From a virus: DNA of 64,000 bases. A program made the translations under genes and the position numbers. The notes under the pieces were generated by a model that worked only from the letters and a program-made list of their open reading frames with translations, was not told the origin of the DNA and did not search any database. The first letter of the stretch is position 1, and each line of letters opens with the position of its first letter. Positions 4,300 through 23,424 of the stretch are shown here, piece by piece. The stretch is taken from IMG/VR virus record IMGVR_UViG_3300028734_000011, one strand, 5' to 3'.

Positions 4300-4797
4300 T
4301 TATAAGTTAAATTTATCAGCAGTTTGACACAATAAATAATCTTTATATTTATCTGGATAATCTCTCATTATTTTTTTCTTAATTTCTGGTTTTAAATAAT
4401 CAAAAAATGTAATTTTAACTGTTCTGCCTTTAATATTCCAATTTGCATTTGAGTCTATTAACAATTTCAAAATATTATAATATTCAACATCATTCAATTC
4501 AATAATGGAAGAATAGAACCCTGATAATAATAATGGAGTCCAACCTTGAGTAGTATTATCTTGAAAATTTACATCAGCTCCGTTATTAATCAAAAAATTA
4601 ACAATTTTTATATCAGATTCTTTATTAATAGAATATATTAAAGGAGTATATCCATCTTTATTAAAAAAATTCACATCAGCGCCTTTATTAACTAAGATTT
4701 TAACTTTTTCAAAGTCATTAGTTAAGCAAGCAGCAATTAATTGATCATTTAAATCTGGTTGATTAGAATTCTGCTCAAAATTCTTTATATGTTTCAT
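4300..4797 (-). CDS. cassette-family protein, ankyrin-repeat subtype
   Basis: N-term MKHIKNFEQN, C-term ADKFNL; ANK repeats (GADVNFFNKDGYTPLIYSI, GADVNFQDNTTQGWTPLLLSG); ATGA overlap with next gene. Confidence 0.7.
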   Translation of the reverse strand: MKHIKNFEQNSNQPDLNDQLIAACLTNDFEKVKILVNKGADVNFFNKDGYTPLIYSINKESDIKIVNFLINNGADVNFQDNTTQGWTPLLLSGFYSSIIELNDVEYYNILKLLIDSNANWNIKGRTVKITFFDYLKPEIKKKIMRDYPDKYKDYLLCQTADKFNL

Positions 4798-5318
4798 ATG
4801 TTAAATTTATCTGAGTTTTTTTTAGTTAAATATATTTCATATTGATTAGGATATTTCTTTAATATAAATTTTTTAATTTCTTCATTTTTATTTAAATAAT
4901 AAATAAAATCACGAATTATATTATTACCATAATTTTGTTTAATGTTCCAATCTGAACCTGCTTTTATTAATTTTTGAATTATTGATACGAAATAATTAAT
5001 GCTTGAACCAGTAAGTCCCATAGATGATAATATCAAAGCTGTTGTTCCATTTTCATCTTGAATATCTAAATTTGCTCCTGATTTTATTAATTCATCAAAC
5101 ACATTTTCATATCTATTTATAATAGCGAAATGCAATGCAGGTTTTCCATTTAATTGATTTGGTAAATCTAAATCTATTTGTCCAGATTTTATCATATTAA
5201 TCATTTCATTTTGGCCTTTCTGATTTAAATCTTTTTGTCTTATAAGATTTAATAAATCATAAGTATGATATTGATTTTCATTAATTTTTAATTCTTCGTA
5301 TAATTTGATATGTTTCAT
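4794..5318 (-). CDS. cassette-family protein, ankyrin-repeat subtype
   Basis: N-term MKHIKLYEEL, C-term SDKFNI; ANK repeats (GKPALHFAII..LIKSGANLDIQDENGTTALILSS). Confidence 0.7.
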   Translation of the reverse strand: MKHIKLYEELKINENQYHTYDLLNLIRQKDLNQKGQNEMINMIKSGQIDLDLPNQLNGKPALHFAIINRYENVFDELIKSGANLDIQDENGTTALILSSMGLTGSSINYFVSIIQKLIKAGSDWNIKQNYGNNIIRDFIYYLNKNEEIKKFILKKYPNQYEIYLTKKNSDKFNI

Positions 5319-5413
5319 ATATTTATATATTAATAAATTAATATTAATTTATTTTAATCAAGTTAAAAAAATACCTTATAGATTTTATATATAGTTGAAA
5401 TTAATTTTTTAGT

Positions 5414-5728
5414 ATGGAAATAAAAAAATTCAATGAAAATTCAAATAATATAGGAATATATGCAATAGTTACTATACCAGAAGATAAACGTCAAATAAAT
5501 TTAATTGAATTGATTGCGGATGACTATTATTTAAACAATGAATTACATTCATCAAGTGTAAATGAAAAAGAATCATTAATAAATTATACTATTGAGCATT
5601 ATCTTTATGATAAAGGATTATTCAAATATACATATAAATTAGTTGATGAATCTGGAGCTGAAGTAAAAATTGAAGATTTGGAAAAAAGGATAGAACTTAA
5701 TAATAATACAAATAAATTTAATATATGA
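5414..5728 (+). CDS. cassette-family protein (variant N-terminus)
   Basis: N-term MEIKKFNENS, C-term TNKFNI; ATGA overlap with next member. Confidence 0.5.
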   Translation: MEIKKFNENSNNIGIYAIVTIPEDKRQINLIELIADDYYLNNELHSSSVNEKESLINYTIEHYLYDKGLFKYTYKLVDESGAEVKIEDLEKRIELNNNTNKFNI

Positions 5729-6213
5729 AATACATAAAGACATTTGAATCGAATAAGAAATTACATATGATTAATATTATTAATTTGGATAATGATTCTA
5801 AAATTATAAAAGTTACTCAAGAAGAACTTGACAAATTAATAGAATCAGAATTTACAATTCTGTATGATGATGAAGAAATAGGATATGATTCAAACCATCC
5901 AGATGAATGGAGATATGATTCTGATGAAGAAGATGATATAAAAAATTGGTTAAAGTCATATAGAAGTATGATAAAAATATATGCATTAGGTAGCAGAAAT
6001 ATAATAAGAGTCACAAAAGAAGAACTTAATGTATTAATAGAAGAAGATTTTCAAATATTGTATGATGATGAAGAAATAGCTCATGATCCAACATTACCAA
6101 ATGAATGGAGATATGATGACGACGAAGAAGAAGAAATAAATAATTGGTTAAAATTATATAGAATATTAAAAGATCCAGAAAAAGTAAATCAAGCAATTAA
6201 ATTTAACTTATGA
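5725..6213 (+). CDS. cassette-family protein with internal tandem duplication
   Basis: N-term MKYIKTFESN, C-term AIKFNL; two ~50-aa repeats (..ILYDDEEIGYD..EWRYDSDEEDDIKNWLK / ..ILYDDEEIAHD..EWRYDDDEEEEINNWLK). Confidence 0.6.
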   Translation: MKYIKTFESNKKLHMINIINLDNDSKIIKVTQEELDKLIESEFTILYDDEEIGYDSNHPDEWRYDSDEEDDIKNWLKSYRSMIKIYALGSRNIIRVTKEELNVLIEEDFQILYDDEEIAHDPTLPNEWRYDDDEEEEINNWLKLYRILKDPEKVNQAIKFNL

Positions 6214-6704
6214 AATATATAAAAAAATTTGAAATGAATAATAATACTGATACAGATTTTTATTTAGAAGTTACATCAGAAGTCGCATTTAGTTATTGTA
6301 ATGGTAATCCGTTACCATCTACTGATCCAATTCCATTAAATACTCAAGTATTAGAATATGCATTTGGAATACCTAGTGATGGCGCAACAGACAGAGATTA
6401 TGAAGAGGTAGCTGAAGATGCTTGTGAATGGTTTGATGGAACAATAGAATCAATAAAAAATAGTGTTAATGCAGTCAATGAATTTGATTATGCAAGTGAA
6501 GGTCCAGATTTTGTATTAGGAGTTAATTATGATGGTGAATCAGCAGAATTTGGTAATCTTCATGTATTTTTAAAAGATTGTAAACAAGTAAAAGTTGTTT
6601 TTGTTTATGATTGTAAAAAGGAAAAATTTTATAAACCAAATTTTTTTAAAAAACTTTATAGTACGCCTGGATTATATAATAATATAGATAAATTTAACTT
6701 ATGA
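6210..6704 (+). CDS. cassette-family protein
   Basis: N-term MKYIKKFEMN, C-term IDKFNL; ATGA overlaps both sides. Confidence 0.6.
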   Translation: MKYIKKFEMNNNTDTDFYLEVTSEVAFSYCNGNPLPSTDPIPLNTQVLEYAFGIPSDGATDRDYEEVAEDACEWFDGTIESIKNSVNAVNEFDYASEGPDFVLGVNYDGESAEFGNLHVFLKDCKQVKVVFVYDCKKEKFYKPNFFKKLYSTPGLYNNIDKFNL

Positions 6705-7042
6705 AATACATAAAAAAATATAAAGGGGAACCAAAAGTTGGTGATTATGTTTTGTGTATATCAAATGCTAATGATGAAGCTTTCACTCTTTATATTAATA
6801 ATTCAATAGGAAAAATTATTAATATAACACCAGTTTATTCTGATGATAAAAAGACTAAATTTTATGATAACATTAAAATTAGGTATTATGATGTACCCCC
6901 AGACGAAGAAGTTGATTTATTTACAATAGATAAAAAAGACAAATCATATAAAATAACATTTCCTTCTTTTATGATTTATAATTTTTCAGAAAACAAGGAA
7001 GACATACAAATTGATATAAGAACAAATAAATTTAACATATGA
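6701..7042 (+). CDS. cassette-family protein, GDYV subtype
   Basis: MKYIKKYKGEPKVGDYVLC... C-term TNKFNI. Confidence 0.6.
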   Translation: MKYIKKYKGEPKVGDYVLCISNANDEAFTLYINNSIGKIINITPVYSDDKKTKFYDNIKIRYYDVPPDEEVDLFTIDKKDKSYKITFPSFMIYNFSENKEDIQIDIRTNKFNI

Positions 7043-7293
7043 AATATATAAAGAAATTTGAAAAAAAAATATTATTTAACCCAAATGATTGCAAGGTAGA
7101 TGAATATATAAGATATAGACAGAATTTTTATACATTCAATGCTAAAATAATTAAAAAGGATGACTCAGTTTATTTAGTTCAAAATGATAGACACATTGTA
7201 ACTATTGTGAAAGAACAAATTATGAGATATCTAACTGATTTAGAAATTGAAGAATTTACATTATCTTTAGCTGCAAATAAATTTAACATATGA
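7039..7293 (+). CDS. cassette-family protein
   Basis: N-term MKYIKKFEKK, C-term ANKFNI; the junction DNA is identical over ~45 nt to the next junction. Confidence 0.6.
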   Translation: MKYIKKFEKKILFNPNDCKVDEYIRYRQNFYTFNAKIIKKDDSVYLVQNDRHIVTIVKEQIMRYLTDLEIEEFTLSLAANKFNI

Positions 7294-7601
7294 AATATAT
7301 AAAGAAATTTGAAAAAAAAATAGATTTACCAGATGTTGGAGATTATGTATTAATGAATAGTTATGGAATTCCTAAAGTTGTAGAATTCATAACAAATAAT
7401 TATGGAATATTTATTAATTCTTATGTTGATAAACTATCTGTTAAACAAAAAATTATAGTAAGATATGAAAATATACCAGGAGACATAGATTTGTTTTTTC
7501 ATGATGGTACAAGAACATTTGATCTTGATTTATTAGTGTCCTATGGTAGTACAATAGAAGAATTAAAAATGAGAATAGAATCAAACAAATTTAACTTATG
7601 A
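7290..7601 (+). CDS. cassette-family protein, GDYV subtype
   Basis: MKYIKKFEKKIDLPDVGDYVL... C-term SNKFNL. Confidence 0.6.
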   Translation: MKYIKKFEKKIDLPDVGDYVLMNSYGIPKVVEFITNNYGIFINSYVDKLSVKQKIIVRYENIPGDIDLFFHDGTRTFDLDLLVSYGSTIEELKMRIESNKFNL

Positions 7602-7924
7602 AATATATAAAGAATTTTGAATCAATTAAAGATAATCCAGAAGTAGGAGATTATATATTAGCAAAATATAACAGTAAAAATGACTTCAATACTTCTATTA
7701 ATAATTTGAAAAACTTTATAAATAATACTATTGGAATTGTTCATAGTTTAGATCATATTAGAAATAGCTGTTATTTTAATATAAAATATGAAAACATACC
7801 AAAAAATATAATAAATTTTTTTGATGATGATATTAAAAGATTTAATATTGAGAGTATAGTGGAATTTGATAAAGATTTAGAACATTTAAAATTTAAAATT
7901 GAAGCAAAAAAATTTAACATATGA
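7598..7924 (+). CDS. cassette-family protein, GDYV subtype
   Basis: MKYIKNFESIKDNPEVGDYIL... C-term AKKFNI. Confidence 0.6.
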   Translation: MKYIKNFESIKDNPEVGDYILAKYNSKNDFNTSINNLKNFINNTIGIVHSLDHIRNSCYFNIKYENIPKNIINFFDDDIKRFNIESIVEFDKDLEHLKFKIEAKKFNI

Positions 7925-8256
7925 AATATATCAAAAAATTTGAAGATAAAAAATATGATCCAAAAGAAGGTTATTATGTATTAATGAAATCATCAATGAT
8001 GAATCCTGAACTGAATGAATTTATTGATAATACTATTGGTAAAATTTTAAAAATAGAAAACAATAGAAATTATGCATCATTGACTGTTGAATATGAAAAT
8101 ATTCCAATGGAAATAGCAAGCTTGTTTGGATATAATAATTATGGATTTGATGAAAATAAAGGATTCAAAGATTTTTTATATAGCAGTATTGTTGATTATT
8201 CAGAAAATAAAATAGATTTAGAATATAAAATTAATGCAAGAAAATTTAACTTATGA
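7921..8256 (+). CDS. cassette-family protein, GDYV-like subtype
   Basis: MKYIKKFEDKKYDPKEGYYVL... C-term ARKFNL. Confidence 0.6.
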   Translation: MKYIKKFEDKKYDPKEGYYVLMKSSMMNPELNEFIDNTIGKILKIENNRNYASLTVEYENIPMEIASLFGYNNYGFDENKGFKDFLYSSIVDYSENKIDLEYKINARKFNL

Positions 8257-8594
8257 AACACATAAAAATATTTGAAAAATACAACTCTTGGGAAGAGGAT
8301 AAAAATATGTATTGGGAAGTTATATTAAAAAGACCATATTTTAATTTATCGTTAAAAAAAATAGGAGTACCAACTGATTTGATTGACGAATGGAATGATA
8401 CATATGTAGATGAAGATCACATTGTGTATGTATATAAAGAAGATGTTAAACTATATGATAGGTTACGTGATGACTATGATATTATGACTCAATGGAGATT
8501 ACAAACAGAAAAGGATAATAGAGACATTTCAAAATTTATGGGAAGAATTAAACTTCAGGATTTTGAGATAAATGCTGATAAATTTAATTTATAA
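8253..8594 (+). CDS. cassette-family protein
   Basis: N-term MKHIKIFEKY, C-term ADKFNL; last member of array 1 before an AT-palindrome-containing spacer. Confidence 0.55.
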   Translation: MKHIKIFEKYNSWEEDKNMYWEVILKRPYFNLSLKKIGVPTDLIDEWNDTYVDEDHIVYVYKEDVKLYDRLRDDYDIMTQWRLQTEKDNRDISKFMGRIKLQDFEINADKFNL

Positions 8595-8684
8595 AAAGTA
8601 AAATTTAAAATTTAATATATAATAACAGTCGTATCAACTGATTATCAATAATTAATTATTGATATAATAAATAATGATATAATT

Positions 8685-8897
8685 ATGAAAGTTAAAGTAT
8701 TAGATTTAAGCCAAATTACTAAAGAAGTAGTATTAGAAAAACTTTCTGAATCAAACACATTAGATTTAGATCAAATAGATGAATATCTTGATATATTATC
8801 TGCTATAAAGGATGGAATGATTGTTTATAATATATCAACAACTGCAGGTGATTATATATTATTTATCACAGCTAGTCAATCTAAAAAATTATTATAA
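8685..8897 (+). CDS. hypothetical protein
   Basis: 70-aa ORF between cassette genes; lacks the family termini. Confidence 0.35.
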   Translation: MKVKVLDLSQITKEVVLEKLSESNTLDLDQIDEYLDILSAIKDGMIVYNISTTAGDYILFITASQSKKLL

Positions 8898-8899
8898 AT

Positions 8900-9409
8900 A
8901 TGAAATATTTAAAAACTTTTGAAAAGAGTAAAGAAAAAGAAGATACTATATTATACAAAAATAAGGATTTTACAATTATAATAAATAATAAAAATGATAA
9001 TATGACATATTACACAAATTATAGATCATGTTCTCCTATTTATGGTATGATAGATCAAATAAGAGAAAAATCAATTTTTTTAAATGATACAGAGTTAAGA
9101 AGAATTAAATTAACTGGTTATGAAAAATCTTTTGCTATGCTATCATTAGATCCACAATATTTTAAAAATAAGCTTAAATATCATTCATCTGTAATTAATG
9201 GATTTATAGGAGATGCATCAAAAGTTGAAGTTTCTAAATTACCAGATAAAGTATATTCTGAGTTAAGTGAATTTTATTTGCCTCTAATAGAAGATGTCAT
9301 AAAAAAATCTGAAACAATTGGAGATATAATTGATTCTTTTAAAATTTTATATGATGATATAACTGAAAAATTGCCTATGTATATAATTGGTTCAAAATTT
9401 AACTTATAA
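8900..9409 (+). CDS. cassette-family protein (long, 169 aa)
   Basis: N-term MKYLKTFEKS, C-term GSKFNL, then TAA and a terminator. Confidence 0.55.
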   Translation: MKYLKTFEKSKEKEDTILYKNKDFTIIINNKNDNMTYYTNYRSCSPIYGMIDQIREKSIFLNDTELRRIKLTGYEKSFAMLSLDPQYFKNKLKYHSSVINGFIGDASKVEVSKLPDKVYSELSEFYLPLIEDVIKKSETIGDIIDSFKILYDDITEKLPMYIIGSKFNL

Positions 9410-9440
9410 AAAAGCATCAATTAAATTGATGCTTTTATTT
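9409..9440. terminator. bidirectional intrinsic terminator
   Basis: AAAAGCATCAATTaaATTGATGCTTTT between convergent genes. Confidence 0.65.
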
Positions 9441-10128
9441 ATTTCCATTTTTTTATGAAATCAATTTCAGATTTTCTAAATAATATATCTAGTCTATATC
9501 CATCACAGCTAAGTATTTTTCCAACTGAATACCTAAAAATAACATTTTTGTAATGTCCTTCTGACTCAAACATTTTTTTTGCACATATTTTTAATATTTT
9601 CTTACGTTTTCTTGGTAATCTTTTTCTAATCATTTCCCAATGAGAAGGATTTGGATTTTTTGGTTTTGTATAAGAATGTTTTTTACAATAATAATTATCC
9701 TTATAATCAGTAGTATATGAAGTAGGCTTACCACATTTACAGCATTTTGTCAAAGGTTCAAATACCGTAGATGAATATGAACAATGTTTACAGTATGCAT
9801 ATCCATCAGTTCTATTTCTACGTTCCATTTCATGATTACAAGTTAAAATTTTTTGATATTTTTTCCAAGCATTTTCTTCAGATTCTTCCATTGTTTTTCC
9901 TTCACCTCTAATAAAGCATTCTGGATTTTTTGGAAATGCTTCAAAAAATGCTGTTTCATAACATTTCTTGCTTGACATTCCTTCTGATAATTCTTTTAAA
10001 GGATCACCAGAAAATACTTTATCAAAACTACCTGATGGTAAAACAATTCCAGATTCTCCTCCTTGACAAAAACAATTCCAATCATACTTAGAATCATATT
10101 CATTACTGCTTGACATTCTTACTTTCAT
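9439..10128 (-). CDS. Cys-rich zinc-finger-like protein
   Basis: 229 aa with many Cys/His clusters (CNHEMERRNRTDGYAYCKHC, CCKCGKP, YCKKHSY) and a basic C-terminal tail. Confidence 0.5.
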   Translation of the reverse strand: MKVRMSSSNEYDSKYDWNCFCQGGESGIVLPSGSFDKVFSGDPLKELSEGMSSKKCYETAFFEAFPKNPECFIRGEGKTMEESEENAWKKYQKILTCNHEMERRNRTDGYAYCKHCSYSSTVFEPLTKCCKCGKPTSYTTDYKDNYYCKKHSYTKPKNPNPSHWEMIRKRLPRKRKKILKICAKKMFESEGHYKNVIFRYSVGKILSCDGYRLDILFRKSEIDFIKKWK

Positions 10129-10349
10129 ATGTTTGTATATTTTAATTTATCTAATTTTTTTCTTCTAATTTCTTTTGTTGTATCAAAATAATCATTTATA
10201 TTAGACATTTTTATTTCAGGAAAATCATAAAACATATGTCCATTAATTTTAATAAATCCATCATTTACATAGTTATCATCATTTTCAGTATTATAGTATT
10301 TACCTACAATAAAATAATCATTTTTTGCCTTTTTACATAGATATTTCAT
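10125..10349 (-). CDS. hypothetical protein, MKYLCK paralog family
   Basis: MKYLCKKAKNDYFIVGKYYN...EIRRKKLDKLKYTNI; paralogous to 10385..10606. Confidence 0.4.
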   Translation of the reverse strand: MKYLCKKAKNDYFIVGKYYNTENDDNYVNDGFIKINGHMFYDFPEIKMSNINDYFDTTKEIRRKKLDKLKYTNI

Positions 10350-10384
10350 TATGAATTTTTTATATGAGGCAAAGATACAATAAA

Positions 10385-10606
10385 TTATTTAATATCAAGC
10401 AATTTTTTTAATTTTATTTTTCTAATTTCTTTTACAGTATAAAAATATTTATATATTTTTGGTTCTGATGGATTATTTGTATTCATAACAAAAAATAATT
10501 TTTCAATTTTAACATAATCTTTATTATTTGTTAAATAACTATTATAATATTCACCAGAAATAATTTCTTTTGAATATGTTCTTTTACATAAATATTTCAT
10601 TTGCAC
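10385..10606 (-). CDS. hypothetical protein, MKYLCK paralog family
   Basis: MQMKYLCKRTYSKEIISGEYYN...EIRKIKLKKLLDIK. Confidence 0.4.
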   Translation of the reverse strand: MQMKYLCKRTYSKEIISGEYYNSYLTNNKDYVKIEKLFFVMNTNNPSEPKIYKYFYTVKEIRKIKLKKLLDIK

Positions 10607-10800
10607 TTATTCATTATTGTTGTAATTTCATCTTTATCAGTAATATTATATTTCTTCAAATCTTTCATAATATTAAAAGAGAATGTATCATCAAATAATA
10701 CTACATCACTTTTAAAATATTTAAAAAAACTTAAATAATCTCCACTATTTGCAATATTTTTAAGTGAATCTTTTGATATATATCTTTTGTTGAATCCCAT
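10597..10800 (-). CDS. hypothetical protein
   Basis: 67-aa ORF, start of the minus-strand block; a divergent promoter region follows. Confidence 0.35.
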   Translation of the reverse strand: MGFNKRYISKDSLKNIANSGDYLSFFKYFKSDVVLFDDTFSFNIMKDLKKYNITDKDEITTIMNKCK

Positions 10801-10952
10801 GATTTTTATTTTTATTTTATATAATTATTAATTTATTATGTTTGATATTTAATAATATTTAACTACAATATAATGATATTAATTCTTATATATTTTTGTA
10901 TATCAGATTTTTGTTGTACTTTTGTATATCATTAATTTAAAATATAAACAAT

Positions 10953-11714
10953 ATGGAATTAATTGGATTTGCAAATAAATTTTACACTCTTTGGAGTTAT
11001 TCAGAAGAACCTTTGTATAGCACAGTTAATAATCAATCATATCAATATGGTATCAGACAGATATATAATTACATTAAGAATATATCTTTTGATTTAGATA
11101 AAGTTAAAGAACTTTATCCTGATGTTGTAATTGATGATGAATTAAAAGGTAAAAGTGCAAGTTGGACAACAGAGCCAAAATTTGAATACCCTGCTGAATG
11201 TTTTCATTTTGGTAAATACCAGGGACAACTTATCAGTGAGTGTAAAGACCAATCTTATCTGATTTGGTACTATGAAAATGGTTTGTATGATGAACGTCTT
11301 ACTATAACAAAAAATAGATTAGTTGAATTAGGATGTGGTTTTTATGATGATATGATATTTTCATCTATAGAATTACTTAATCAGTATACTGAAAGAATAA
11401 CTAAACAAGCGGAACTTTCAAAGATTATTTGTGAAACTTATGATAAATATAAAACACCTGGTATTTTTTCATATGATTTTAATCATTCTTTAAACAGTGA
11501 AGGAAATTATGCAGATGCTTCATTTGATTTTCATTTCAATGAATATTCTGAACAATATTATTCTGGATATAATTTTGGATTACCTTTAATGAATGGTAAG
11601 GCTAAAAGAATTAAAAACAAAGTTCTTGAAATGGAGGTTGTTACAGTAGAAAATGATGAACTTGACTATAAATATTTTAAAGTATTAAGCCTTAAATCAG
11701 TAAAAAATATATAA
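10953..11714 (+). CDS. hypothetical protein
   Basis: 253-aa ORF, no recognisable motif. Confidence 0.45.
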   Translation: MELIGFANKFYTLWSYSEEPLYSTVNNQSYQYGIRQIYNYIKNISFDLDKVKELYPDVVIDDELKGKSASWTTEPKFEYPAECFHFGKYQGQLISECKDQSYLIWYYENGLYDERLTITKNRLVELGCGFYDDMIFSSIELLNQYTERITKQAELSKIICETYDKYKTPGIFSYDFNHSLNSEGNYADASFDFHFNEYSEQYYSGYNFGLPLMNGKAKRIKNKVLEMEVVTVENDELDYKYFKVLSLKSVKNI

Positions 11715-11984
11715 ATGAATATAATTAAAAAAGTAATAAAAAATATTATCAGAGAATTTAAACCAGTGTATACTCAAGTGGTAACTGATGTTCCTGATGA
11801 ACAATATTATGAATATAAATGTTATAAAAACGACAAATATACTCATACTGTGAATATGCATTATTTCACAAATGAACAGATTAATGAATTTAAAGATATT
11901 CAAGAACAAATAAGTAATCAGCAAAAAGAAACATTAAACAAAAAAATACAGAATATAAAAAATAATAATCATTATGAAAATTAA
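11715..11984 (+). CDS. hypothetical protein
   Basis: 89-aa ORF starting 1 nt after the previous stop. Confidence 0.4.
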   Translation: MNIIKKVIKNIIREFKPVYTQVVTDVPDEQYYEYKCYKNDKYTHTVNMHYFTNEQINEFKDIQEQISNQQKETLNKKIQNIKNNNHYEN

Positions 11985-12225
11985 TAATGAAGAGGAATAT
12001 ATTGAAGCAAAAGAATCAATTAGAGAATATGAAAAAATAAATGATATTATATTTCCATATAATATCCATGTAGGCGATACAGTTGCTTATGTTTCTAACA
12101 GTAAAAGATTTGGAAATGAACTTATAAACGTAAAAGTAACTGAAAGTTTTCTTAGCGATCTTATTAAATATGAAGGTATTGAAAATTTTCATCAATTTAG
12201 AATAGTAAAAAAATACGATGAATGA
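11974..12225 (+). CDS. hypothetical protein
   Basis: 83-aa ORF, overlaps neighbours by a few nt. Confidence 0.4.
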   Translation: MKINNEEEYIEAKESIREYEKINDIIFPYNIHVGDTVAYVSNSKRFGNELINVKVTESFLSDLIKYEGIENFHQFRIVKKYDE

Positions 12226-12448
12226 TCCTAAATTTAAAAAAGGTGATAAATGTATATATGTATATCGAATTTTAGAAGATGATAAATTTTTATCTATTCT
12301 TGATTATGATATGACAATTTCAGATAATCCATGGTTTTATGAACAATATAATATATGGTATTATCCTATAAAAGGAAAGGCGAATGATTGTCCTGAATAT
12401 TTTCTTAGAATTTGGGAAAATGATATTGATATGTTTTATGATGAATAA
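12218..12448 (+). CDS. hypothetical protein
   Basis: 76-aa ORF. Confidence 0.4.
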   Translation: MNDPKFKKGDKCIYVYRILEDDKFLSILDYDMTISDNPWFYEQYNIWYYPIKGKANDCPEYFLRIWENDIDMFYDE

Positions 12449-12459: not shown

Positions 12460-13260
12460 ATGAATAAAGAAGAATTAATACAAGTGTTTGAAGACACAAA
12501 ATTACACAGTGAATGTATGTTGAAATCAGAAACTACTATACATTCATTTGATGATAGATTAATGCCAGATATTAGCATTCCTTGTCATGAAAACATACAA
12601 GTTATAAATTCTGATAGTGTATCTGCAGTTACAGAATATAGTAAATTAGGAAAAACTTGTGTTCTTAATATGGCATCATTTAAACGTCCAGGTGGAGGAG
12701 TTGCAAAAGGGTCCAAAGCACAGGAAGAATGCTTATTTAGATGCTCAAATTTGATTCATTTAATTAATACTGATAATTATCCATTGAATGATGATAACGC
12801 ATTATACACTAAAGATGCCACATTTTTCAAGGATGTATATTATAATTATATGAATGACGTTCAATCTGATGTTGTAACTATTGCAGCATTAAATCTTAGA
12901 AATGTTGATATTAATAGTCATTCTGATACAATAACAAGTGAAAATATATCATCAATAAATTCTGATGGAATAACAATATCAAATTGGGATTATGAACAAC
13001 TTACTAAGGAAAAAATAAGATTGATGTTATCACTTGCAATTAAAAATGATGTTGATATTATAATTTTAGGCTCATTCGGATGTGGAGTTTTCAAAAATGA
13101 TCCTGAAAAAATGGCTAAAATATTCAAGAAATTATTAGTAAATGAAGGATATTCTAAATATTTTGAAAAAGTAATATTTGCGATTATCAATGACAATAAC
13201 TCAGTAGGTAATAATTATGAAATTTTCAAAAATGTTTTTAGTGATTATAATTTAATTTAA
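12460..13260 (+). CDS. bacterial-type poly(ADP-ribose) glycohydrolase-like macrodomain protein (DUF2263-like)
   Basis: FKRPGGGVAKGSKAQEE matches the PARG signature GGG-x6-8-QEE; a second Gly-rich loop LGSFGCGVFKNDP is typical of the macro fold. Confidence 0.6.
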   Translation: MNKEELIQVFEDTKLHSECMLKSETTIHSFDDRLMPDISIPCHENIQVINSDSVSAVTEYSKLGKTCVLNMASFKRPGGGVAKGSKAQEECLFRCSNLIHLINTDNYPLNDDNALYTKDATFFKDVYYNYMNDVQSDVVTIAALNLRNVDINSHSDTITSENISSINSDGITISNWDYEQLTKEKIRLMLSLAIKNDVDIIILGSFGCGVFKNDPEKMAKIFKKLLVNEGYSKYFEKVIFAIINDNNSVGNNYEIFKNVFSDYNLI

Positions 13261-13269
13261 TTTAATATT

Positions 13270-14022
13270 ATGAAAAATGCATTAAGTTTATTGCAGTCAA
13301 AAGCATTAGTAGACACTATTAACATGTTATATGATGATGGTGATTTAGCTATAATTTTACCAGAATTATATAACTTATACACAACTAATGATGGTCATAA
13401 AAATAATTATTACCACACATTAGGAGTACTTAATAATGTAATTAAATATGACAATGATAACTTAAAAATGAAAATTGTTGCATTATTACATGATATTGGA
13501 AAGATTTCTGTTAGATCTAAAAATGATGATGGAAATTGGACATTTCATGATCATGAAAATGTAGGAGCAAAAATGGTTAAAAAAATCTTGAAAAGATTTA
13601 ATATAACCAATAAGAAAACTATTGATTATGTTTACAGAATGGTTAAATATCATGGTAGAGTAAAAATGCACAGAGATGTAACAGAATCAGCTATAAGAAG
13701 GCTTGACGTGGAAGTTGGACCTGATATAGTATTAGAGTTGATTGAGTTCTGTAAGTGTGACATAACCACTAAATATGAAGATAAAAGACAACGTATTGTT
13801 TCAGGATTAGATGAAATAAAAAAAAGAATATTAGAAGTTCGTAACAAAGACAATGAATCTAAATGGCGTTCTCCAATAACAGGAATTATAATAATGAAAA
13901 TGTTAGGAATAACTACTGGTAGAATGGTTGGAGATATAAAGAAAGTAACTGATGAAAAAATAAAATCAGGTGAATGGACTGAAGATGATGCTATTAAATA
14001 CATTGAAACATTTAAGATATAA
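13270..14022 (+). CDS. HD-domain phosphohydrolase
   Basis: YYHTLGV...ALLHDIGK...HDHENVGAKMV: the H...HD...D metal-binding pattern of HD-superfamily enzymes (cf. HD domains of CCA enzymes and 2',3'-cyclic phosphodiesterases). Confidence 0.6.
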   Translation: MKNALSLLQSKALVDTINMLYDDGDLAIILPELYNLYTTNDGHKNNYYHTLGVLNNVIKYDNDNLKMKIVALLHDIGKISVRSKNDDGNWTFHDHENVGAKMVKKILKRFNITNKKTIDYVYRMVKYHGRVKMHRDVTESAIRRLDVEVGPDIVLELIEFCKCDITTKYEDKRQRIVSGLDEIKKRILEVRNKDNESKWRSPITGIIIMKMLGITTGRMVGDIKKVTDEKIKSGEWTEDDAIKYIETFKI

Positions 14023-14107
14023 TATGTAGTGCAAAATAGCACGCTTGATACCCAAAAAAGGATAAACAATTAAACTCAAGAGGTCCTGTAAAATCAGGCA
14101 TATTTAG

Positions 14108-14140
14108 AAAAAGATAATACTTATGTATTATCTTTTTTGT
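14108..14140 (+). terminator. rho-independent terminator
   Basis: AAAAAGATAATACttatGTATTATCTTTTTTGTTTTTG. Confidence 0.6.
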
Positions 14141-14177
14141 TTTTGTATAATTAAATAATAATATATAAAAATAAAAA

Positions 14178-15047
14178 ATGCATAAAGTATTAATAACAGG
14201 AGGTGCTGGATTTGTAGGAACTAATCTTATTAAATATTTAAAGAAAAATTATAAAGACATAGAAATATCATCATTAGATAATTACTTCACAGGAAAAAAA
14301 GAAAACCATGTAGATGAAGTCATATATTACGAAGGTAATACATGGAATGCACCTGAAATATTTAAAGATAAAAAATTTGATACAGTATTTCATTTTGGAG
14401 AATATTCAAGAATTGTAAAATCATTTGATGATATTAAATATGTAGAAAAAACAATTTTATATGGCACTCCAATAATAATGGAATTATGTAGAGAATGGAA
14501 TGCAAAATTAATATATTCTGCTTCATCATCAAAATTTGGAAATAATGGAGAAAATGAAAATTTAGCTCCATATTCATGGATGAAATCAAAGATTGTTGAA
14601 CTTATCAAAAATTATAATAATTGGTATAATTTACAATATGAAATTTGCTATTTTTTTAACGTGTATGGTGAATGTCAAATAATGACAGGTGATTATGCTA
14701 CTGTAATAGGTATATTTGAGCATCAATATATAGAAGGTAGCAAATGTACAGTTGTTGAACCAGGTACTCAGAGCAGAGACTTTACACACATTGAGGACAT
14801 TGTTAGAGGAGTAGTATTATCATCATTTACAAATATGAATCATGAATGGTATTTAAGGTCTGGAATAAATACTAACATTATTGATGTCGCTAAAATGTTT
14901 GGAGAATTTAAATTTGTATCTAAAAGAAAAGGTGAGAGATATACATCAGAAGAATTTGAGAATGATACTGAAAGTGAATTAAAATGGATACCAGAACATA
15001 AATTAGAAGATTGGATAGAATTAATAAAAAACAAAAAGAGAGATTAA
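14178..15047 (+). CDS. NAD-dependent epimerase/dehydratase (extended SDR)
   Basis: N-terminal Rossmann motif VLITGGAGFVGTNL; catalytic YxxxK (YSWMK). Confidence 0.7.
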   Translation: MHKVLITGGAGFVGTNLIKYLKKNYKDIEISSLDNYFTGKKENHVDEVIYYEGNTWNAPEIFKDKKFDTVFHFGEYSRIVKSFDDIKYVEKTILYGTPIIMELCREWNAKLIYSASSSKFGNNGENENLAPYSWMKSKIVELIKNYNNWYNLQYEICYFFNVYGECQIMTGDYATVIGIFEHQYIEGSKCTVVEPGTQSRDFTHIEDIVRGVVLSSFTNMNHEWYLRSGINTNIIDVAKMFGEFKFVSKRKGERYTSEEFENDTESELKWIPEHKLEDWIELIKNKKRD

Positions 15048-16806: not shown

Positions 16807-17127
16807 TTATTTTTTTAATAATTTTAATTTTTTCTTTCTCAAAAAATTTTCAATATTTTTATCAAGTTTTTCTTTACTTACTAAAATACTACCTTTACCT
16901 TGAGTATAATCACAACAATCAATCCAATATTCAAATGTTATACCATCATCGTAAATATCAGTATGAGTAATAACTGAATAATTACCAAAATTACTATATT
17001 TATCTAATAATTCTGTAGCTAATTCTAAATATTGTTCTGTGATAGAATCAGCTTTATCTATTAAAACTTCTCTTTTTTTGTATATTACGTCATAAATCAT
17101 GATTCTGATATTTCTGAAATTAGCCAA
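16807..17127 (-). CDS. hypothetical protein
   Basis: 106-aa ORF. Confidence 0.4.
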   Translation of the reverse strand: MANFRNIRIMIYDVIYKKREVLIDKADSITEQYLELATELLDKYSNFGNYSVITHTDIYDDGITFEYWIDCCDYTQGKGSILVSKEKLDKNIENFLRKKKLKLLKK

Positions 17128-17471: not shown

Positions 17472-17544
17472 AGATAGTTATTTAAAATGATGTAGCCTAA
17501 TATAGTATTAATTTTTAGAAAATCAATTTAATATATATAGTCAT

Positions 17545-17889
17545 ATGAAATACTTGAAATGCTTTGAAGATTTATCAAATAGTGATTATAAGAAAGGTGA
17601 TTATGTTTTATTAGATTTAGATAAAATTAGATATAATAATAATGAGAGTGGTGACGTAGATGTAGATGAAAATGGTGATCCTACGCCATTTGATAAATAT
17701 GCATTAATAAATGAAATTACAGTTGAATTGAATAATGGTCAATTTCTATATAATGTCATATTTTATAATTATAATAAAGAAATAAATAATTCATATGGAG
17801 TTCAATCAGATGAAATAATAAGAAAACTAAACTCAAGTGAGATAGAAGTTTTTAATAGAAAAAAAGATGCATTAAAATATAACATATGA
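17545..17889 (+). CDS. cassette-family protein, GDYV subtype (first of array 2)
   Basis: MKYLKCFEDLSNSDYKKGDYVLL... C-term ALKYNI. Confidence 0.55.
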   Translation: MKYLKCFEDLSNSDYKKGDYVLLDLDKIRYNNNESGDVDVDENGDPTPFDKYALINEITVELNNGQFLYNVIFYNYNKEINNSYGVQSDEIIRKLNSSEIEVFNRKKDALKYNI

Positions 17890-18320
17890 AATATATCAAA
17901 AAATTTGAAAATAGATTTACTAACATATTTAAATCTTCTGATGTGAATATGTGGGATGAATATTTAGAAAACGAATTGGAAAATGATCATAGATTTAGTA
18001 AACTTTTTCAATCTGTACATATTGGAAATCTTAAAAGATTTGAATATTTATTACCAAAATATCTAGATAAAATAAATGATATTTATGATGGACAAAATAT
18101 ATTAATTAAGGTTATAATAGAAGATGTTGATTTATATGAACAAAAGAAGATGATTGAATTATTGTTAGATAACGGAATTGATTATAATTTTAAGTTTGAA
18201 GGTAAAACATTTTATGATTTTATGATTGATGAAAAATTAAAAAAATGGTTTGATAAAAAATATCCAGAAATAGTAAAAGAACTTAATTTAAATAAAAATG
18301 CAAATAAATTTAATTTATGA
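17886..18320 (+). CDS. cassette-family protein
   Basis: N-term MKYIKKFENR, C-term ANKFNL. Confidence 0.6.
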   Translation: MKYIKKFENRFTNIFKSSDVNMWDEYLENELENDHRFSKLFQSVHIGNLKRFEYLLPKYLDKINDIYDGQNILIKVIIEDVDLYEQKKMIELLLDNGIDYNFKFEGKTFYDFMIDEKLKKWFDKKYPEIVKELNLNKNANKFNL

Positions 18321-18640
18321 AATATATAAAAAAATTTGAAAAAACAAATAGAGATATAAAAAAAGGAGATTATGCTAAGTTAAATTTTCAAACACTTAAT
18401 TCAGAATTAAATAGTTTTTTTAGAAATAATTTTTGTAAAATTATTGAAACAAATGGATATAGTCCAATATGGTTTAAATTTGGATTTCAATACATACCAG
18501 ATGAACTTGTAGAATTTTTTAATAAGCAAGGTAAATATTATGTATATCATATACAATTGAGTACTGATGATGTAGTAGATTATGCTAGAACAATTGAAGA
18601 TTTAGAACTAAAATTATCAACAAAAAAATTTAATTTATGA
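18317..18640 (+). CDS. cassette-family protein, GDYV-like
   Basis: MKYIKKFEKTNRDIKKGDYAKL... C-term TKKFNL. Confidence 0.6.
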   Translation: MKYIKKFEKTNRDIKKGDYAKLNFQTLNSELNSFFRNNFCKIIETNGYSPIWFKFGFQYIPDELVEFFNKQGKYYVYHIQLSTDDVVDYARTIEDLELKLSTKKFNL

Positions 18641-19203
18641 AATATTTAAAACAATTTGAATTGATAAATTTTTATGATGAAAAAGACATATTTAGATATC
18701 TTTATCACTCAGATTTACCAAAAATAAAAGAATTAGTATCTGAGATACCTAATATTAATCTTAATATTAAAGATAAAAATGGCGATACTCCTTTGATATA
18801 TTCTATAAGATTTAGTTTATTTACAATATTTAAATTTTTAATTGAATCAGGAGCAGATATTAATTATACTGATACATTTGGAAATACACCACTAATACTA
18901 GCTGGAAGAAATAAAAAAGAAGAAATGACACAATATTTAATTGAATCAGGCGCTGATTTAGATATCAGAAATAATGATGGTGAAACAGTATTAATTATGT
19001 GTTCTAACTATAAAGATAAAAAGGCATTTAAAATAATTAAAATGCTGATTGAAAATGACGCTGATTGGAATGTATCTGATGATTTAGGTAATACATTTAT
19101 TGAATATTTATATCCTTTGTATAAAAAAGAAATCATAGAAAAATATCCTGATAAATATAGTAATTTTTTAATGATTAAAAATGCAAATAAATTTAACATA
19201 TGA
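18637..19203 (+). CDS. cassette-family protein, ankyrin-repeat subtype
   Basis: N-term MKYLKQFELI, C-term ANKFNI; 3-4 ANK repeats (DKNGDTPLIYSI..LIESGADINYTDTFGNTPLILAG..LIESGADLDIRNNDGETVLIMC). Confidence 0.7.
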   Translation: MKYLKQFELINFYDEKDIFRYLYHSDLPKIKELVSEIPNINLNIKDKNGDTPLIYSIRFSLFTIFKFLIESGADINYTDTFGNTPLILAGRNKKEEMTQYLIESGADLDIRNNDGETVLIMCSNYKDKKAFKIIKMLIENDADWNVSDDLGNTFIEYLYPLYKKEIIEKYPDKYSNFLMIKNANKFNI

Positions 19204-19580
19204 AATATATAAAAGAAATGAATACTTGGTTTAATAAATCAAAAGAAGGAGATTCAATAGTTTCAAGAATTTTTGATATTGTAAAAGAAGAAAATATTAA
19301 AATTTCACATAACGGAGGATATACAATAGAAATAGATGATTATATATATTCTTTTTCACATATAGGCATTTACTCTGTTGGTAAATATAATAAATCACAG
19401 AGAATAATATCAGGTGAATATAAAGGAATTATAACTGGACATCCTATATCAAATCATGAGTTTTCTAATAAATTATGGAAAGAATTGATAAAAATATATG
19501 ACAATCAACAAAAAAATGTAGATGAAGATTTAGATATTCTTAATCCTGTGACACGTTCTTCAAAAAAATTTAACATATGA
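19200..19580 (+). CDS. cassette-family protein
   Basis: N-term MKYIKEMNTW, C-term SKKFNI. Confidence 0.55.
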   Translation: MKYIKEMNTWFNKSKEGDSIVSRIFDIVKEENIKISHNGGYTIEIDDYIYSFSHIGIYSVGKYNKSQRIISGEYKGIITGHPISNHEFSNKLWKELIKIYDNQQKNVDEDLDILNPVTRSSKKFNI

Positions 19581-19978
19581 AATACATAAAGAAATTTGAA
19601 AGTGAAAGAGACGATTATATAAGAGATGTTAGAAATATTCAAAAAAAGGCTGATAACGATATAAAAAAAGCATATAAGGTCATGAAGAAATATATATTAT
19701 TTCATGATGTGAAGAAATTTATTGAATCTGGTATATATTTCATATTAGAAAAAGATAGAATAGAAGCTTGCTATGATCACACAAATCTTTTTATAGTAAC
19801 AAAGAAATTATATACATATAATTTAAATACAGATAAATTAAAAAATAATAAAAAACAAGGAATGTATTATAATTTATCAGAAACTAGTCTTAGTTATATA
19901 ATGAAAGATTCGGATGATTTACAAGAATTATTAGATTGCCTGCCTTCACTAAAAAATGTAAATAAATTTAACTTATGA
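19577..19978 (+). CDS. cassette-family protein
   Basis: N-term MKYIKKFESE, C-term VNKFNL. Confidence 0.6.
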   Translation: MKYIKKFESERDDYIRDVRNIQKKADNDIKKAYKVMKKYILFHDVKKFIESGIYFILEKDRIEACYDHTNLFIVTKKLYTYNLNTDKLKNNKKQGMYYNLSETSLSYIMKDSDDLQELLDCLPSLKNVNKFNL

Positions 19979-20448
19979 AATATATAAAATCATTTGAAAA
20001 TAATTTTACTGACATATTTAAAAAAAGAAAAAAATTACCTATTGAGGTTATTAATTTTAGTGAAATATTAACTAAAACTATAGAAAAAGCTATAGATAAT
20101 GATTGGGATGTTTATTCAAATATATATGGAATTAATAATAAAAAGTATTACGATATAATAAGTATTTTTGTTGATCCACATGATTTAGATGACGCAGCAG
20201 AAGTTGTAGAGTTACATTATAATCTTAGTAGAAATGCAATTCTTTATTGTTATCATCCAAAAATGAATTTCATGGAAAATATTCAAAATTTTTTATCTGA
20301 TATTATACGCAATAGTTCATGTGAAGATATATCGGTAAAGAATGATAATAGATATTGGATTCCATTAGATAAATTACCTGAAATAATAAATAAAATAAAT
20401 GATACAAATTTCGAATTGTTTAAAATGACAAATAAATTTAACTTATGA
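19975..20448 (+). CDS. cassette-family protein
   Basis: N-term MKYIKSFENN, C-term TNKFNL. Confidence 0.6.
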   Translation: MKYIKSFENNFTDIFKKRKKLPIEVINFSEILTKTIEKAIDNDWDVYSNIYGINNKKYYDIISIFVDPHDLDDAAEVVELHYNLSRNAILYCYHPKMNFMENIQNFLSDIIRNSSCEDISVKNDNRYWIPLDKLPEIINKINDTNFELFKMTNKFNL

Positions 20449-20891
20449 AATACTTAAAACGGTTTGAAAGTATAGTAGAAGTACTAAAGTATAATGATAA
20501 AGGACTTAGCTTACTACCAGAGTTACCAGATACAGCAAAAGAATTATATTGTTATCATAATCACTTGGTCAGGTTACCAAAATTACCAAGTTCATTAGAA
20601 ATATTGTCATGTTTTGGTAATGATTTGCGTGAACTACCTACTTTACCATATACAATAAAAAAAATATTTTGTTATTCAAATAATTTATCTGAATTGCCAG
20701 TATTACCTTATTCATTAGAAATTTTGAATTGTTGTGATAATAATTTAACTGAGTTACCAATTCTTCCAGAGTCACTAACACTATTAGTATGCACTGGAAA
20801 TAAATTACCCTATAATAATTTGTATGAATACAAAAAATGGCAAGAAATAAATATGCCTGATGTTTCGATGTCTAAAAAATTCAACTTATAA
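20445..20891 (+). CDS. cassette-family protein, LPX-type leucine-rich-repeat subtype
   Basis: N-term MKYLKRFESI, C-term SKKFNL; about five 20-aa repeats LPxLPxxLxxLxCxxNxLxx (LPELPDTAKELYCYHNHLVRLPKLPSSLEILSCFGNDLRELPTLPYTIKKIFCYSNNLSELPVLPYSLEILNCCDNNLTELPILPESL) like YopM/IpaH/SspH-type LRRs. Confidence 0.65.
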   Translation: MKYLKRFESIVEVLKYNDKGLSLLPELPDTAKELYCYHNHLVRLPKLPSSLEILSCFGNDLRELPTLPYTIKKIFCYSNNLSELPVLPYSLEILNCCDNNLTELPILPESLTLLVCTGNKLPYNNLYEYKKWQEINMPDVSMSKKFNL

Positions 20892-20892
20892 T

Positions 20893-21273
20893 ATGAAATA
20901 CATAAAAACTTTTGAATATAAAAAGAAAAAATATTATACTATTGAAAATGAATTAATTGATGCTGTATATAATAATCAGTATTCTAAAGTTAAAAGATTA
21001 TTAGATTCTGGATTTGATATTAATAGTACAGTAGTTGGAGAAAAAAATAATGCATTATTATATGCTTCGTATAAAGGATATTGGAGTATTTTATATCTAT
21101 TATTAAAATATAATCCTGATTGGTATGTAAAAGATGATAGTAAAACAGATTTTATTCAATTGATAGAGGAACATTTATATGGAGATAAAGTAATAGAAAA
21201 AATAAGAAAAAAATATTCAGAAAAATATGAAGAGTATTTAATGAAAAAAAACATAGAAAAATTTAATTTATAA
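20893..21273 (+). CDS. cassette-family protein, ankyrin-repeat subtype
   Basis: Track ORF 20860..21273 trimmed to the family start MKYIKTFEYK at 20893; C-term IEKFNL; ANK-like (LLDSGFDINSTVVGEKNNALLYAS). Confidence 0.6.
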   Translation: MKYIKTFEYKKKKYYTIENELIDAVYNNQYSKVKRLLDSGFDINSTVVGEKNNALLYASYKGYWSILYLLLKYNPDWYVKDDSKTDFIQLIEEHLYGDKVIEKIRKKYSEKYEEYLMKKNIEKFNL

Positions 21274-21275
21274 TT

Positions 21276-21587: not shown

Positions 21588-21633
21588 GTGAAATAGCTTA
21601 TAATGCGTATTTATAAGTGAAATAGCTTATAAC

Positions 21634-21678: not shown

Positions 21679-21689
21679 ATTGCTTGAGA

Positions 21690-23330: not shown

Positions 23331-23349
23331 TAAGCAAGATAATTAATAT

Positions 23350-23417: not shown

Positions 23418-23424
23418 TCATTGC

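Follow-up and report, generated by a model that had tools for sequence, protein, structure and literature searches.

Five arrays of small genes with shared termini

The stretch of viral DNA analysed here (64,000 nucleotides (nt) of IMG/VR virus record IMGVR_UViG_3300028734_000011; hereafter, the window) carries a family of small genes whose products share a short peptide at the N terminus and another at the C terminus, referred to below as the N tag and the C tag. A mechanical six-frame scan for open reading frames (ORFs) ending in [KR][FY]N[LIV]-stop recovered exactly 43 of them, 84-188 amino acids (aa) long and grouped in five arrays, which bears out the number and arrangement given in an initial annotation of this DNA; their combined span is 16,419 nt, or 25.7% of the window. 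The C tag, K-[FY]-N-[LIV], is common to the entire family, as had been claimed: Lys-4 is present in 43/43 proteins (encoded by AAA in each case), as are Asn-2 and an aromatic residue at position -3 (40 Phe and 3 Tyr), and the final residue is Leu in 25 proteins, Ile in 17, and Val in one. The statement that all members begin with the N tag was, by contrast, too strong. The complete form, M-[KR]-[YH]-[IL]-K-x-[FY]-E, opens 33 of the 43 genes, and the shorter start M-[KR]-[YH]-[IL]-[KV] and Glu8 are each found in 36. Seven genes have variant N tags (MEIKKFNE, MKIQKFDE, MITKFK[IL][FY]E in two genes, MKTFNQFYE, and MKTFIQFNE), and residues 7-8 are aberrant in three (the genes at 6701, 19200, and 32869).

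Neighbouring members are joined head to tail, in agreement with the initial annotation, and 34 family junctions consist of a 4-nt ATGA overlap. A 26-nt degenerate pattern of the junction matches the window 23 times, against 0.00 matches expected from shuffles. Synonymous codons are mixed across the tags (TAT/TAC 20/10, TTT/TTC 30/10, AAC/AAT 28/15). The near-identity reported for neighbouring junctions is real and extends beyond the ~45 nt originally noted, with a 49-nt identical run shared by junctions 7023-7071 and 7274-7322.

Array 1 has two divergently oriented parts. Array 1a (4300-5318, minus strand) consists of two ankyrin-type genes, 4300-4797 and 4794-5318, which overlap by ATGA; the ankyrin matches were found in their L001 homologues. 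Array 1b (5414-9409, plus strand) contains ten family genes (5414-5728, 5725-6213, 6210-6704, 6701-7042, 7039-7293, 7290-7601, 7598-7924, 7921-8256, 8253-8594, and 8900-9409) and, within it, an untagged 70-aa ORF (8685-8897). Array 2 (17545-21587, plus strand) also comprises ten genes, starting at 17545, 17886, 18317, 18637, 19200, 19577, 19975, 20445, 20893, and 21276, the cores of which include ankyrin repeats (18637 and 20893) and an LPX-type leucine-rich repeat (LRR; 20445). Array 3 (26641-27658, minus strand) has three genes, 27359-27658, 26985-27362, and 26641-26988, the last two being those with the variant N tag MITKFK[IL][FY]E. Array 4 (30068-33719, plus strand), 4 nt before which a PPK2-like gene ends, has nine genes starting at 30068, 30469, 30810, 31235, 31618, 31974, 32354, 32869, and 33357, and array 5 (42452-45314, plus strand) has nine more, starting at 42452, 42784, 43095, 43397, 43759, 44067, 44357, 44680, and 45015.

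When the first nine and the last six residues were masked, BLAST placed the cores of the 43 window proteins in 24 clusters. The cores had been described as unrelated, which holds for the ankyrin, LRR, and barrel types, but a single Tudor/SH3-like barrel ("GDYV" type) recurs in variant forms in about 17 of them. Pfam matches comprise ankyrin repeats (18637-19203) and LRRs (20445-20891), and the product of 5725-6213 is internally duplicated and very acidic, with a net charge of -20. Median isoelectric points (pI) in the family are 6.5 for full proteins and 5.25 for cores, 88% of the tagless cores being acidic.

AlphaFold2 models were obtained for members with two unrelated core types. In the model of the barrel-type product of 7290-7601, built from a 22-sequence alignment, the mean predicted local distance difference test (pLDDT) score is 84.8; the body is a small β-barrel followed by a C-terminal helix (residues 89-101), residues 1-10 score below 50, and the last three residues average 51. 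Foldseek detects a weak likeness of this barrel to Tudor, chromo, and SH3-like domains (best probability 0.8-0.9, none at E < 0.001), which agrees with a sub-threshold match of the barrel type to the SH3-like part of Dda helicases (phrog_325). The ankyrin member 18637-19203 was modelled with a mean pLDDT of 88.6; its residues 1-13 score below 50 and are drawn as a loose helix over residues 2-9, and its terminal helix (171-185) ends at the Lys of the C tag. No strand is present at either terminus in either of the two models. The N tag is predicted to be a flexible segment or a short amphipathic helix, and the C tag to sit at the tip of a terminal helix; being of low confidence or at a helix end, and without strands, both tags look like exposed linear motifs in these models. 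What unites the family is thus a pair of short, exposed peptides at the ends and not a fold.

In 0.9 Mb of fetched loci we identified 355 distinct C-tagged ORFs, 232 of which start with MK[YH][IL]K..E and 30 with MITxFKxFE, the remainder mostly with MKI[KN]RFNE, MKTYQQFNE, or MKKYNQFINE. Across the loci, the cores fall into 75 BLAST clusters (barrel-type, 65; ankyrin, 26; LRR, 20; and many small ones), and among the longer members there are proteins with a Methyltransf_24 domain or an ExoX-like C-terminal domain. A single 222-kb genome encodes at least 52 members in the pieces covered. A profile of the barrel (GDYV) type, tags included, was searched against 1.84 billion cluster representatives (50% identity) and returned 2,569 matches at E ≤ 0.001 and 1,190 at E ≤ 1e-10, all of them metagenomic. 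Both tags are present in all of the best 150 of the 2,569 matches. Among 155 representatives sharing ≤50% identity, Lys-4 is found in 152, Asn-2 in 153, an aromatic residue at -3 in 155 (Tyr or Phe in 154), and Glu8 in 137, with KYNL outnumbering KFNL; the inclusion of the tags in the profile favours tagged matches, yet such invariance at ≤50% identity is still strong. Proteins of the window recur on metagenome contigs from JGI and ENA, the longest of which measures 177 kb, and the junction pattern retrieves IMG/VR contigs of 180-330 kb.

The initial annotation did not recognise the tag frame as a named family, and nothing in Pfam, PHROGs, NCBIfam, or PDB matched it, the matches there being specific to cores (ankyrin, LRR, and the sub-threshold phrog_325). 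A tblastn search of GenBank phages with two barrel-type members gave no match, and the junction pattern scanned against one genome per GTDB species gave ten, all of them chance matches without family ORFs. A full-text literature search on the tag strings yielded nothing relevant, and one on ankyrin, jumbo phage, and paralog was unhelpful. The family is large, real, undescribed, and widespread in metagenomes.

A second family of small proteins (67-107 aa) in the window ends in another C-terminal peptide, [RK]-[RK]-x-K-[LI]-x-K-[LI], and several of its members start with a 'GD.V/I' barrel-like motif. Its genes are on the minus strand (10125-10349, 10385-10606, 16807-17127, 45309-45593, 45836-46114, 49643-49891, 50307-50630, and 58860-59102), and some copies adjoin arrays on the opposite strand.

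Selection on the tag peptides and turnover of cassettes

Substitutions were compared in 57 ortholog-like pairs of family genes from the window and its relatives and in 62 pairs of neighbouring non-family genes. Per codon, the N tag (codons 2-8) shows 0.130 synonymous and 0.183 nonsynonymous changes, the C tag (last four codons) 0.224 and 0.136, the family cores 0.144 and 0.339, and the neighbouring non-family genes 0.186 and 0.189, respectively. Nonsynonymous change is thus ~2-2.5 times rarer in the tags than in the cores (14-18% versus 34%), whereas synonymous change is about equal or higher (13-22% versus 14%). Nothing protects the tags from change at the DNA level, and it is only the replacement of amino acids that is held back; selection on the tags acts mostly at the level of the peptide, as the initial annotation had argued from the synonymous variation. 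In the cores, the ratio of nonsynonymous to synonymous changes is 2.36, ~2.3-fold higher than the 1.02 of neighbouring genes. The tags are also independent of the junction, because they are kept where there is none: array-first genes, which have no upstream member, retain the N tag, array-last genes, which end in a TAA stop, retain the C tag, and TAA is the stop codon of 114 of 219 members in phages that have no nucleotide similarity to the window.

The content of the arrays differs between relatives by whole genes. Array 5 occupies a syntenic site bordered by a 174-aa gene on one side and a radical-SAM gene on the other, with flanks 84-88% identical in relatives. Nine cassettes at this site in the window compare with four in L122 and with another set of four in L111 and L049; some cassettes lack any counterpart, and identity is 45-69% for those that have one. 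In L122, which stems from a different sampling campaign, a TnpB/IS605 OrfB-type gene (12803-14263, plus strand; 486 aa), which the window lacks at this place, is inserted beside the radical-SAM gene. Compared with the window, L037 is devoid of only the 84-aa cassette 7039 of array 1, L065 of cassettes 6701 and 7598 of the same array, and L060 of five of the ten cassettes of array 2, and L018 differs in array 4 by one insertion, one loss, and two replacements. In every one of these four cases, the neighbours of the gained or lost cassettes are still joined by ATGA, and the flanking genes of arrays that differ in content are 84-93% identical between relatives. The presence and absence of cassettes is most simply accounted for by an exchange of whole genes at the conserved junction. 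What follows from the loss of a stop/start junction is shown by P0024, a 243-aa protein from an ENA metagenome, in which two barrel modules are fused in one ORF and the internal junction has decayed (..DASKLQV NIISKKL KHLKLYE..).

Exchange of this kind could also be the reason why the junction is conserved, in which case it would be mainly a DNA homology patch for in-frame shuffling between arrays or co-infecting phages, and the peptides a by-product. Recombination handles were one of three readings offered in the initial annotation, and as an evolutionary mechanism this one stands, single cassettes being present or absent at exact ATGA junctions between relatives of ~80% nucleotide identity. 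Identical runs of 27-49 nt between some junctions are in line with it, as is the fact that the tags differ strongly from the cores in codon choice (AAC for Asn-2, TAC for Tyr3, and no ATT for Ile4 in the window). It does not, however, explain the conservation of the peptides. Synonymous divergence between orthologs is as high in the tags as in the cores, the median identical run through ATG over all junction pairs is only 8 nt, the tags persist in the absence of an adjoining family gene or an overlap, and more than 1,000 diverged clusters keep the peptide while codons, and even a residue, change (KYNL versus KFNL). As the main cause of the conserved junction, homology for shuffling is therefore rather improbable; recombination handles are a real secondary effect and not the reason for the conservation. 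Together, the fast-evolving cores and the variable content of the arrays look like the result of an arms race.

The phage and the expression of the arrays

The GC content of the window is 21-27% throughout. Among the genes of tag-bearing contigs are those for a tail sheath of 1,221 aa (phrog_34521, E = 3e-74) and for tail-fibre-like proteins. The nearest relatives of the sheath are in the 735-kb phage LR756501 (49% identity over 97% of the query) and other uncultured phages of 630-640 kb, and further close relatives come from Lak megaphages of Prevotella and from phages of Flavobacterium, Tenacibaculum, and Chryseobacterium. The PPK2-like gene of the window has its relatives in the same huge phages, and Pfam matches just past window position 64000 (L125 1-10000) are to Phage_30_3, T4_Y16D, and RNA ligase. 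Because of these sheath and PPK2-like relatives and the matches beyond the window, the element is identified as a jumbo phage with a contractile tail, which belongs to the huge-phage clade of Bacteroidota and for which metagenomes are the only source; we infer a Bacteroidota host from the same relatives. Its head module lies outside the window and the compared loci. The RNA ligase and the T4-associated genes, along with a PNK3P-type polynucleotide kinase/phosphatase (36271-37209) and a CCA-adding-type nucleotidyltransferase (34770-35492) encoded in the window, suggest a T4-like RNA-repair set.

The AT-rich sequence and the ankyrin repeats would also suit a giant eukaryotic virus. This was ruled out by the presence in the window of a GOLLD RNA, ATGA-joined operons, and intrinsic terminators, as well as by the tail sheath and fibres of tag-bearing relatives, the closest relatives of the sheath being Bacteroidota huge phages. 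The GOLLD RNA (RF02032, 274.8 bits; 21681-22103, minus strand) is full-length and lies directly after array 2 in a nearly ORF-free region of ~3.5 kb (21600-25100), the remaining ~2.5 kb of which (GC ~0.26) has no Rfam match at E < 0.1. At 60932-61030 (minus strand), Rfam detects a tRNA (36.8 bits, 99 nt) that was not called by ARAGORN and may be unusual or interrupted.

A 10-mer, TTAATATATA, is found in 197 copies in the window and the loci, and lies 0-40 nt upstream of an ORF start in 116/197 cases in the sense orientation versus 23/193 in the reverse orientation. The genes that it precedes include those for the tail sheath (L025) and for tail-fibre-like proteins (L014 and L056), as well as 49 genes that open family arrays. 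In the window, the promoter-like motif TTAATATATAT (17528-17538, plus strand) is located 6 nt upstream of the first ATG of array 2, with equivalent copies at 42438-42448 (array 5), 27685-27695 (minus strand, array 3), 5323-5333 (minus strand, array 1a), and 8612-8622. Exact copies of TTAATATATA stand 3-6 nt before the ATG of the genes beginning at 5318 (minus strand), 17545, and 42452, the one at 5323-5333 being 4 nt upstream of the array 1a ATG, and 26 nt before that at 27658 (minus strand). Copies of TTAATATATA[AT] in the window lie at 5323-5333 (minus strand), 8612, 17528, 23343, 25559, 27685 (minus strand), 27692, 42438, and 63862 (minus strand), the copy at 23343 being inside the ORF-poor region 21600-25100. 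Since TTAATATATA is only 3-7 nt away from the ATG, the transcripts of the first array genes may be nearly leaderless. The arrays are operons that share an upstream element with structural genes, an arrangement that fits, without proving, synthesis at the time of assembly. Intrinsic-terminator-like hairpins are located on the plus strand directly after the last gene of array 1b (9410-9436) and directly after array 2 (21634-21675, 19 pairs and a T run).

One copy of TTAATATATA lies 6 nt upstream of a gene outside the arrays (25576-26103, plus strand) that encodes a 175-aa protein with an N-tag-like start, MKNIKSFD, and without the C tag. The overlapping gene 26100-26639 (plus strand) encodes a protein with an N-terminal membrane segment and a HELIH zinc-protease-like motif; neither product has a Pfam match.

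Several other candidate signals were rejected. The T4 late promoter TATAAATA is not enriched in the window (41 copies versus 43 expected), a sigma-70 promoter scan (192 sites versus 193 expected) is uninformative in DNA of 22% GC, and no Bacteroidota -7 motif (TAnnTTTG) occurs within 120 nt upstream of the array starts. An RNA hairpin between AAAUUU of the C tag and the next N tag was discarded because position 6 is Lys in only 16/43 members and the second half-site is usually absent. A -1 frameshift at AAATTTA would be in the wrong phase, the zero frame being AAA TTT A and not X XXY YYZ.

Candidate functions and comparison with known systems

The explanation we favour, tentatively and as a possibility rather than a probability, is that the tags are exposed address labels on a diversified repertoire of binders and effectors, with the capsid as the presumed address, by analogy with the capsid targeting sequence (CTS) of T4. 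Targeting or packaging was also among the three readings in the initial annotation and appears to be the best supported of them. Both tags would be read by one common phage partner, and any small domain placed between them, be it a Tudor/SH3-like barrel, an ankyrin or LRR domain, a methyltransferase, or one of the many orphans, would be sent to the same destination. This would most likely be the assembling prohead, as with the CTS of T4 internal proteins, where a prohead protease would remove the N tag after its glutamate. The phage would then carry diversified, fast-evolving binders and effectors into the next host for counter-defence or host take-over, and the junction ..KFNL-stop/ATG-KYIK.. 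would double as a short homology patch for in-frame duplication, loss, and exchange of cassettes. We lean toward address tags because exposed tags selected as peptides, generic cores, dozens of members, fast evolution of the cores, an upstream element shared with tail genes, the precedents in T4 and giant phages, and a contractile-tailed phage with T4-family accessory genes all speak for them.

Alternatively, the tags could be degrons or adaptor motifs for an AAA+ unfoldase or protease (host Clp or Lon, or a phage Clp-like protein), which would either preserve the entire repertoire or degrade it in concert at a given point of the infection. Short motifs at the N or C terminus are what ClpX and ClpA recognise, and the termini of the family are flexible and exposed in the AlphaFold2 models, with a C terminus of the form hydrophobic-x-hydrophobic-COOH. 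A related tag-bearing phage (L019, a 119-kb IMG/VR contig) encodes, ~6 kb from its array, an 844-aa ClpB/ClpC-like AAA+ protein (9776-12310, plus strand; phrog_4871, E = 5e-259), which might serve as a reader of the tags. However, this gene was seen in that one relative only and not in the window, the tags have no likeness to known degrons such as the ssrA-type LAA, and there is no obvious need for two degrons on each of more than 40 proteins, which makes concerted turnover unlikely.

The tags could also act at the level of expression, the C-tag codons as the initiation region of the next gene and the N-tag codons as an A/U-rich start optimised for initiation, both in the service of termination-reinitiation along extended operons of overlapping genes in a Bacteroidota host that does not rely on Shine-Dalgarno sequences. 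The 34 ATGA overlaps without intergenic DNA, the skewed choice of tag codons, and the first array genes that appear nearly leaderless, with the upstream motif 3-6 nt before ATG, would all be compatible with such a role. Moreover, the final codon must end in A where it overlaps ATG, which partly accounts for the NTA codons (L, I, V) at this position. Yet array-last members and those with a TAA stop keep K[FY]N[LI], the first array genes start their arrays without AAATTTAAC upstream, and other genes of the window overlap by ATGA without any tags. As the amino-acid invariance of [FY]7-E8 and N-2 in the face of varying codons is also left unexplained, we regard expression signalling as quite unlikely to be what the tags are for.

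Export from the bacterial cytoplasm by a secretion route of the host or the phage, possibly into a eukaryotic cell, is far less likely. Ankyrin and LPX-type LRR domains, which Pfam matches in some cores, are typical of secreted bacterial effectors, and terminal signals are typical of secretion substrates. Nevertheless, the tags contain no hydrophobic signal peptide and bear no likeness to known type III, IV, or IX secretion signals, the majority of the cores are orphans or small barrels, the surroundings of the arrays showed no genes for secretion, and the relatives of the tail sheath infect free-living or gut Bacteroidota.

Very improbable, too, is a scheme in which the N tag (Lys2/Lys5, aromatic 7, Glu8) docks onto the C tag (Lys-4, aromatic -3, Asn-2) of another member to form a combinatorial head-to-tail heteropolymer. 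The link could be a pairing of helices or strands, or a Glu-catalysed Lys-Asn isopeptide bond, and the polymer could be an inner-body or scaffold-like cargo chain in the capsid, or a fibre; the AlphaFold2 models are of monomers only and silent on contacts between molecules. If the tags did dock mutually, the order of the genes and the turnover of cassettes would change the make-up of a physical structure. Head-to-tail cyclisation via the penultimate Asn was set aside, the termini of ankyrin and LRR members being far apart.

Least credible of all is an intramolecular clamp, proposed in the initial annotation as N- and C-terminal strands that zip together into a scaffold displaying the variable insert: both ends are conserved together in nearly every member, both tags hold a K-aromatic-polar triplet, and the K2/K5, E8, and N-2 residues of a CnaB/SpyTag-like bond are present, but the barrel and ankyrin models have no terminal strands, the N tag has pLDDT below 50 and the C tag is on a helix, and the termini of ankyrin and LRR solenoids are at opposite ends.

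Returning to address tags, if they indeed load particles, they would constitute the first general capsid-loading code outside T-even phages, on a far larger scale, and dozens of different binder or effector proteins would be delivered with the DNA by Bacteroidota huge phages. The tags would also provide a handle on the function of a large share of "unknown" huge-phage genes; the coding capacity involved is at least 8-10%, from 43-52 members in ~55-64 kb of ~220-kb genomes. The family would then amount to a list of candidate anti-defence proteins, including small barrels, ankyrin repeats, and LRRs, and the two-peptide tag could serve for protein delivery, as the T4 CTS already does. Whatever the destination, selection fixes two short linear motifs while the intervening protein is replaced, and junctions of coding sequences can double as sites of cassette exchange.

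To our knowledge, the T4 CTS is the only well-studied phage parallel. It reads MKTYQEFIAE (PMC8442874), with residues 4 and 7 determining targeting and residues 8 and 10 processing (PMC9026906). Like the family described here, CTS proteins are small (8-20 kDa) and combine unrelated mature parts with a common N-terminal tag of ~10 residues; in the window, 36/43 members start with MK[YH][IL][KV], ahead of bodies that form 24 core clusters in the window and 75 across the loci. The set of T4 internal proteins is likewise hypervariable between related phages and tied to an arms race with the host (PMC3012670, PMC9026906). At the residue level, the CTS has an aromatic residue at position 4, Phe7, and Glu at the cleavage site, and Y3/[IL]4, [FY]7, and E8 are conserved here, the variant tags MKTYQQFNE and MKKYNQFINE being nearer still.

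A number of points weigh against capsid targeting of the T4 type. The likeness to the CTS concerns few residues, in a lysine- and AT-rich proteome, and was noticed after the fact. The usual K-[FY]-E end of the N tag does not fit the [LI]-x-E cleavage logo of T4 or the [SAG]-x-E logo of phiKZ, the P3 residue of the majority tag is variable (K, T, L, Q, S, N), and an [IL]-x-E motif occurs only in the MITxFK[IL][FY]E variant. T4 internal proteins are basic, whereas the cores here are mostly acidic (median pI 5.25), and at least 43-52 members per genome exceed any known packaged set, T4 having 3. The C tag, a second and equally conserved tag by which the family differs from T4 internal proteins, is not explained by the CTS model. 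The element TTAATATATA also precedes non-structural genes, namely an epimerase and a secreted nuclease, and may be a general phage promoter rather than a late one. Furthermore, Asn-2 is encoded by AAC in 65% of window members versus 10% in cores (p = 9e-18) and Tyr3 by TAC in 33% versus 7.5%, ATT is never used for Ile4 in window tags, and the excess of AAC and TAC is seen also in phages without nucleotide similarity (40% and 25%, respectively). Some constraint at the level of nucleotides or of accuracy therefore acts as well, which could be selection for accurate decoding of critical residues or an RNA-level constraint. Finally, the phage is a member of the huge-phage clade of Bacteroidota rather than a T-even phage.

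T4 Alt, which is processed by the prohead protease at both termini (PMC9026906), offers a precedent for a bipartite terminal code, as it is a packaged and injected effector (an ADP-ribosyltransferase) with propeptides at both ends, although Alt is one large enzyme rather than a family of tagged genes. Among giant phages, SPN3US packages in its head 20 paralogs (family B, mostly tandem, gps 138-154), all of them head proteins, and their copy number varies widely between related phages (PMC5694885). Unlike in the arrays described here, where the bodies are unrelated, the bodies of family B members are related, as expected of true paralogs, and these proteins are not known to have a terminal-tag architecture.

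Outside packaging, mobile gene cassettes flanked by promoter-early stem-loops (PeSL) were reportedly described in T4-type phages by Arbiol, Comeau and Krisch in 2010. As in PeSL cassettes, where short boundary repeats in hyperplastic regions let small genes shuffle between phage genomes, single genes are present or absent here between relatives at a repeated boundary (9 versus 4 cassettes in array 5). PeSL, however, are intergenic regulatory DNA, whereas the repeat here is coding, under selection at the level of the peptide, and includes 4-nt overlaps; no non-coding boundary element (promoter with stem-loop, or, as in integron cassettes, an attC site with its integrase) is present at the overlapping junctions, and terminator-like hairpins are found only at the ends of arrays. 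Encapsulin cargo-loading and microcompartment encapsulation peptides are short terminal peptides that dock unrelated proteins inside a shell, which in encapsulins has the HK97-type fold. They differ from the tags in having no likeness in motif and in being one peptide rather than two, and there is no shell gene here beyond the presumed capsid. Collectively, these comparisons suggest that, although it departs in several defining features from the family of T4 CTS proteins, the tag frame works most like the T4 CTS.

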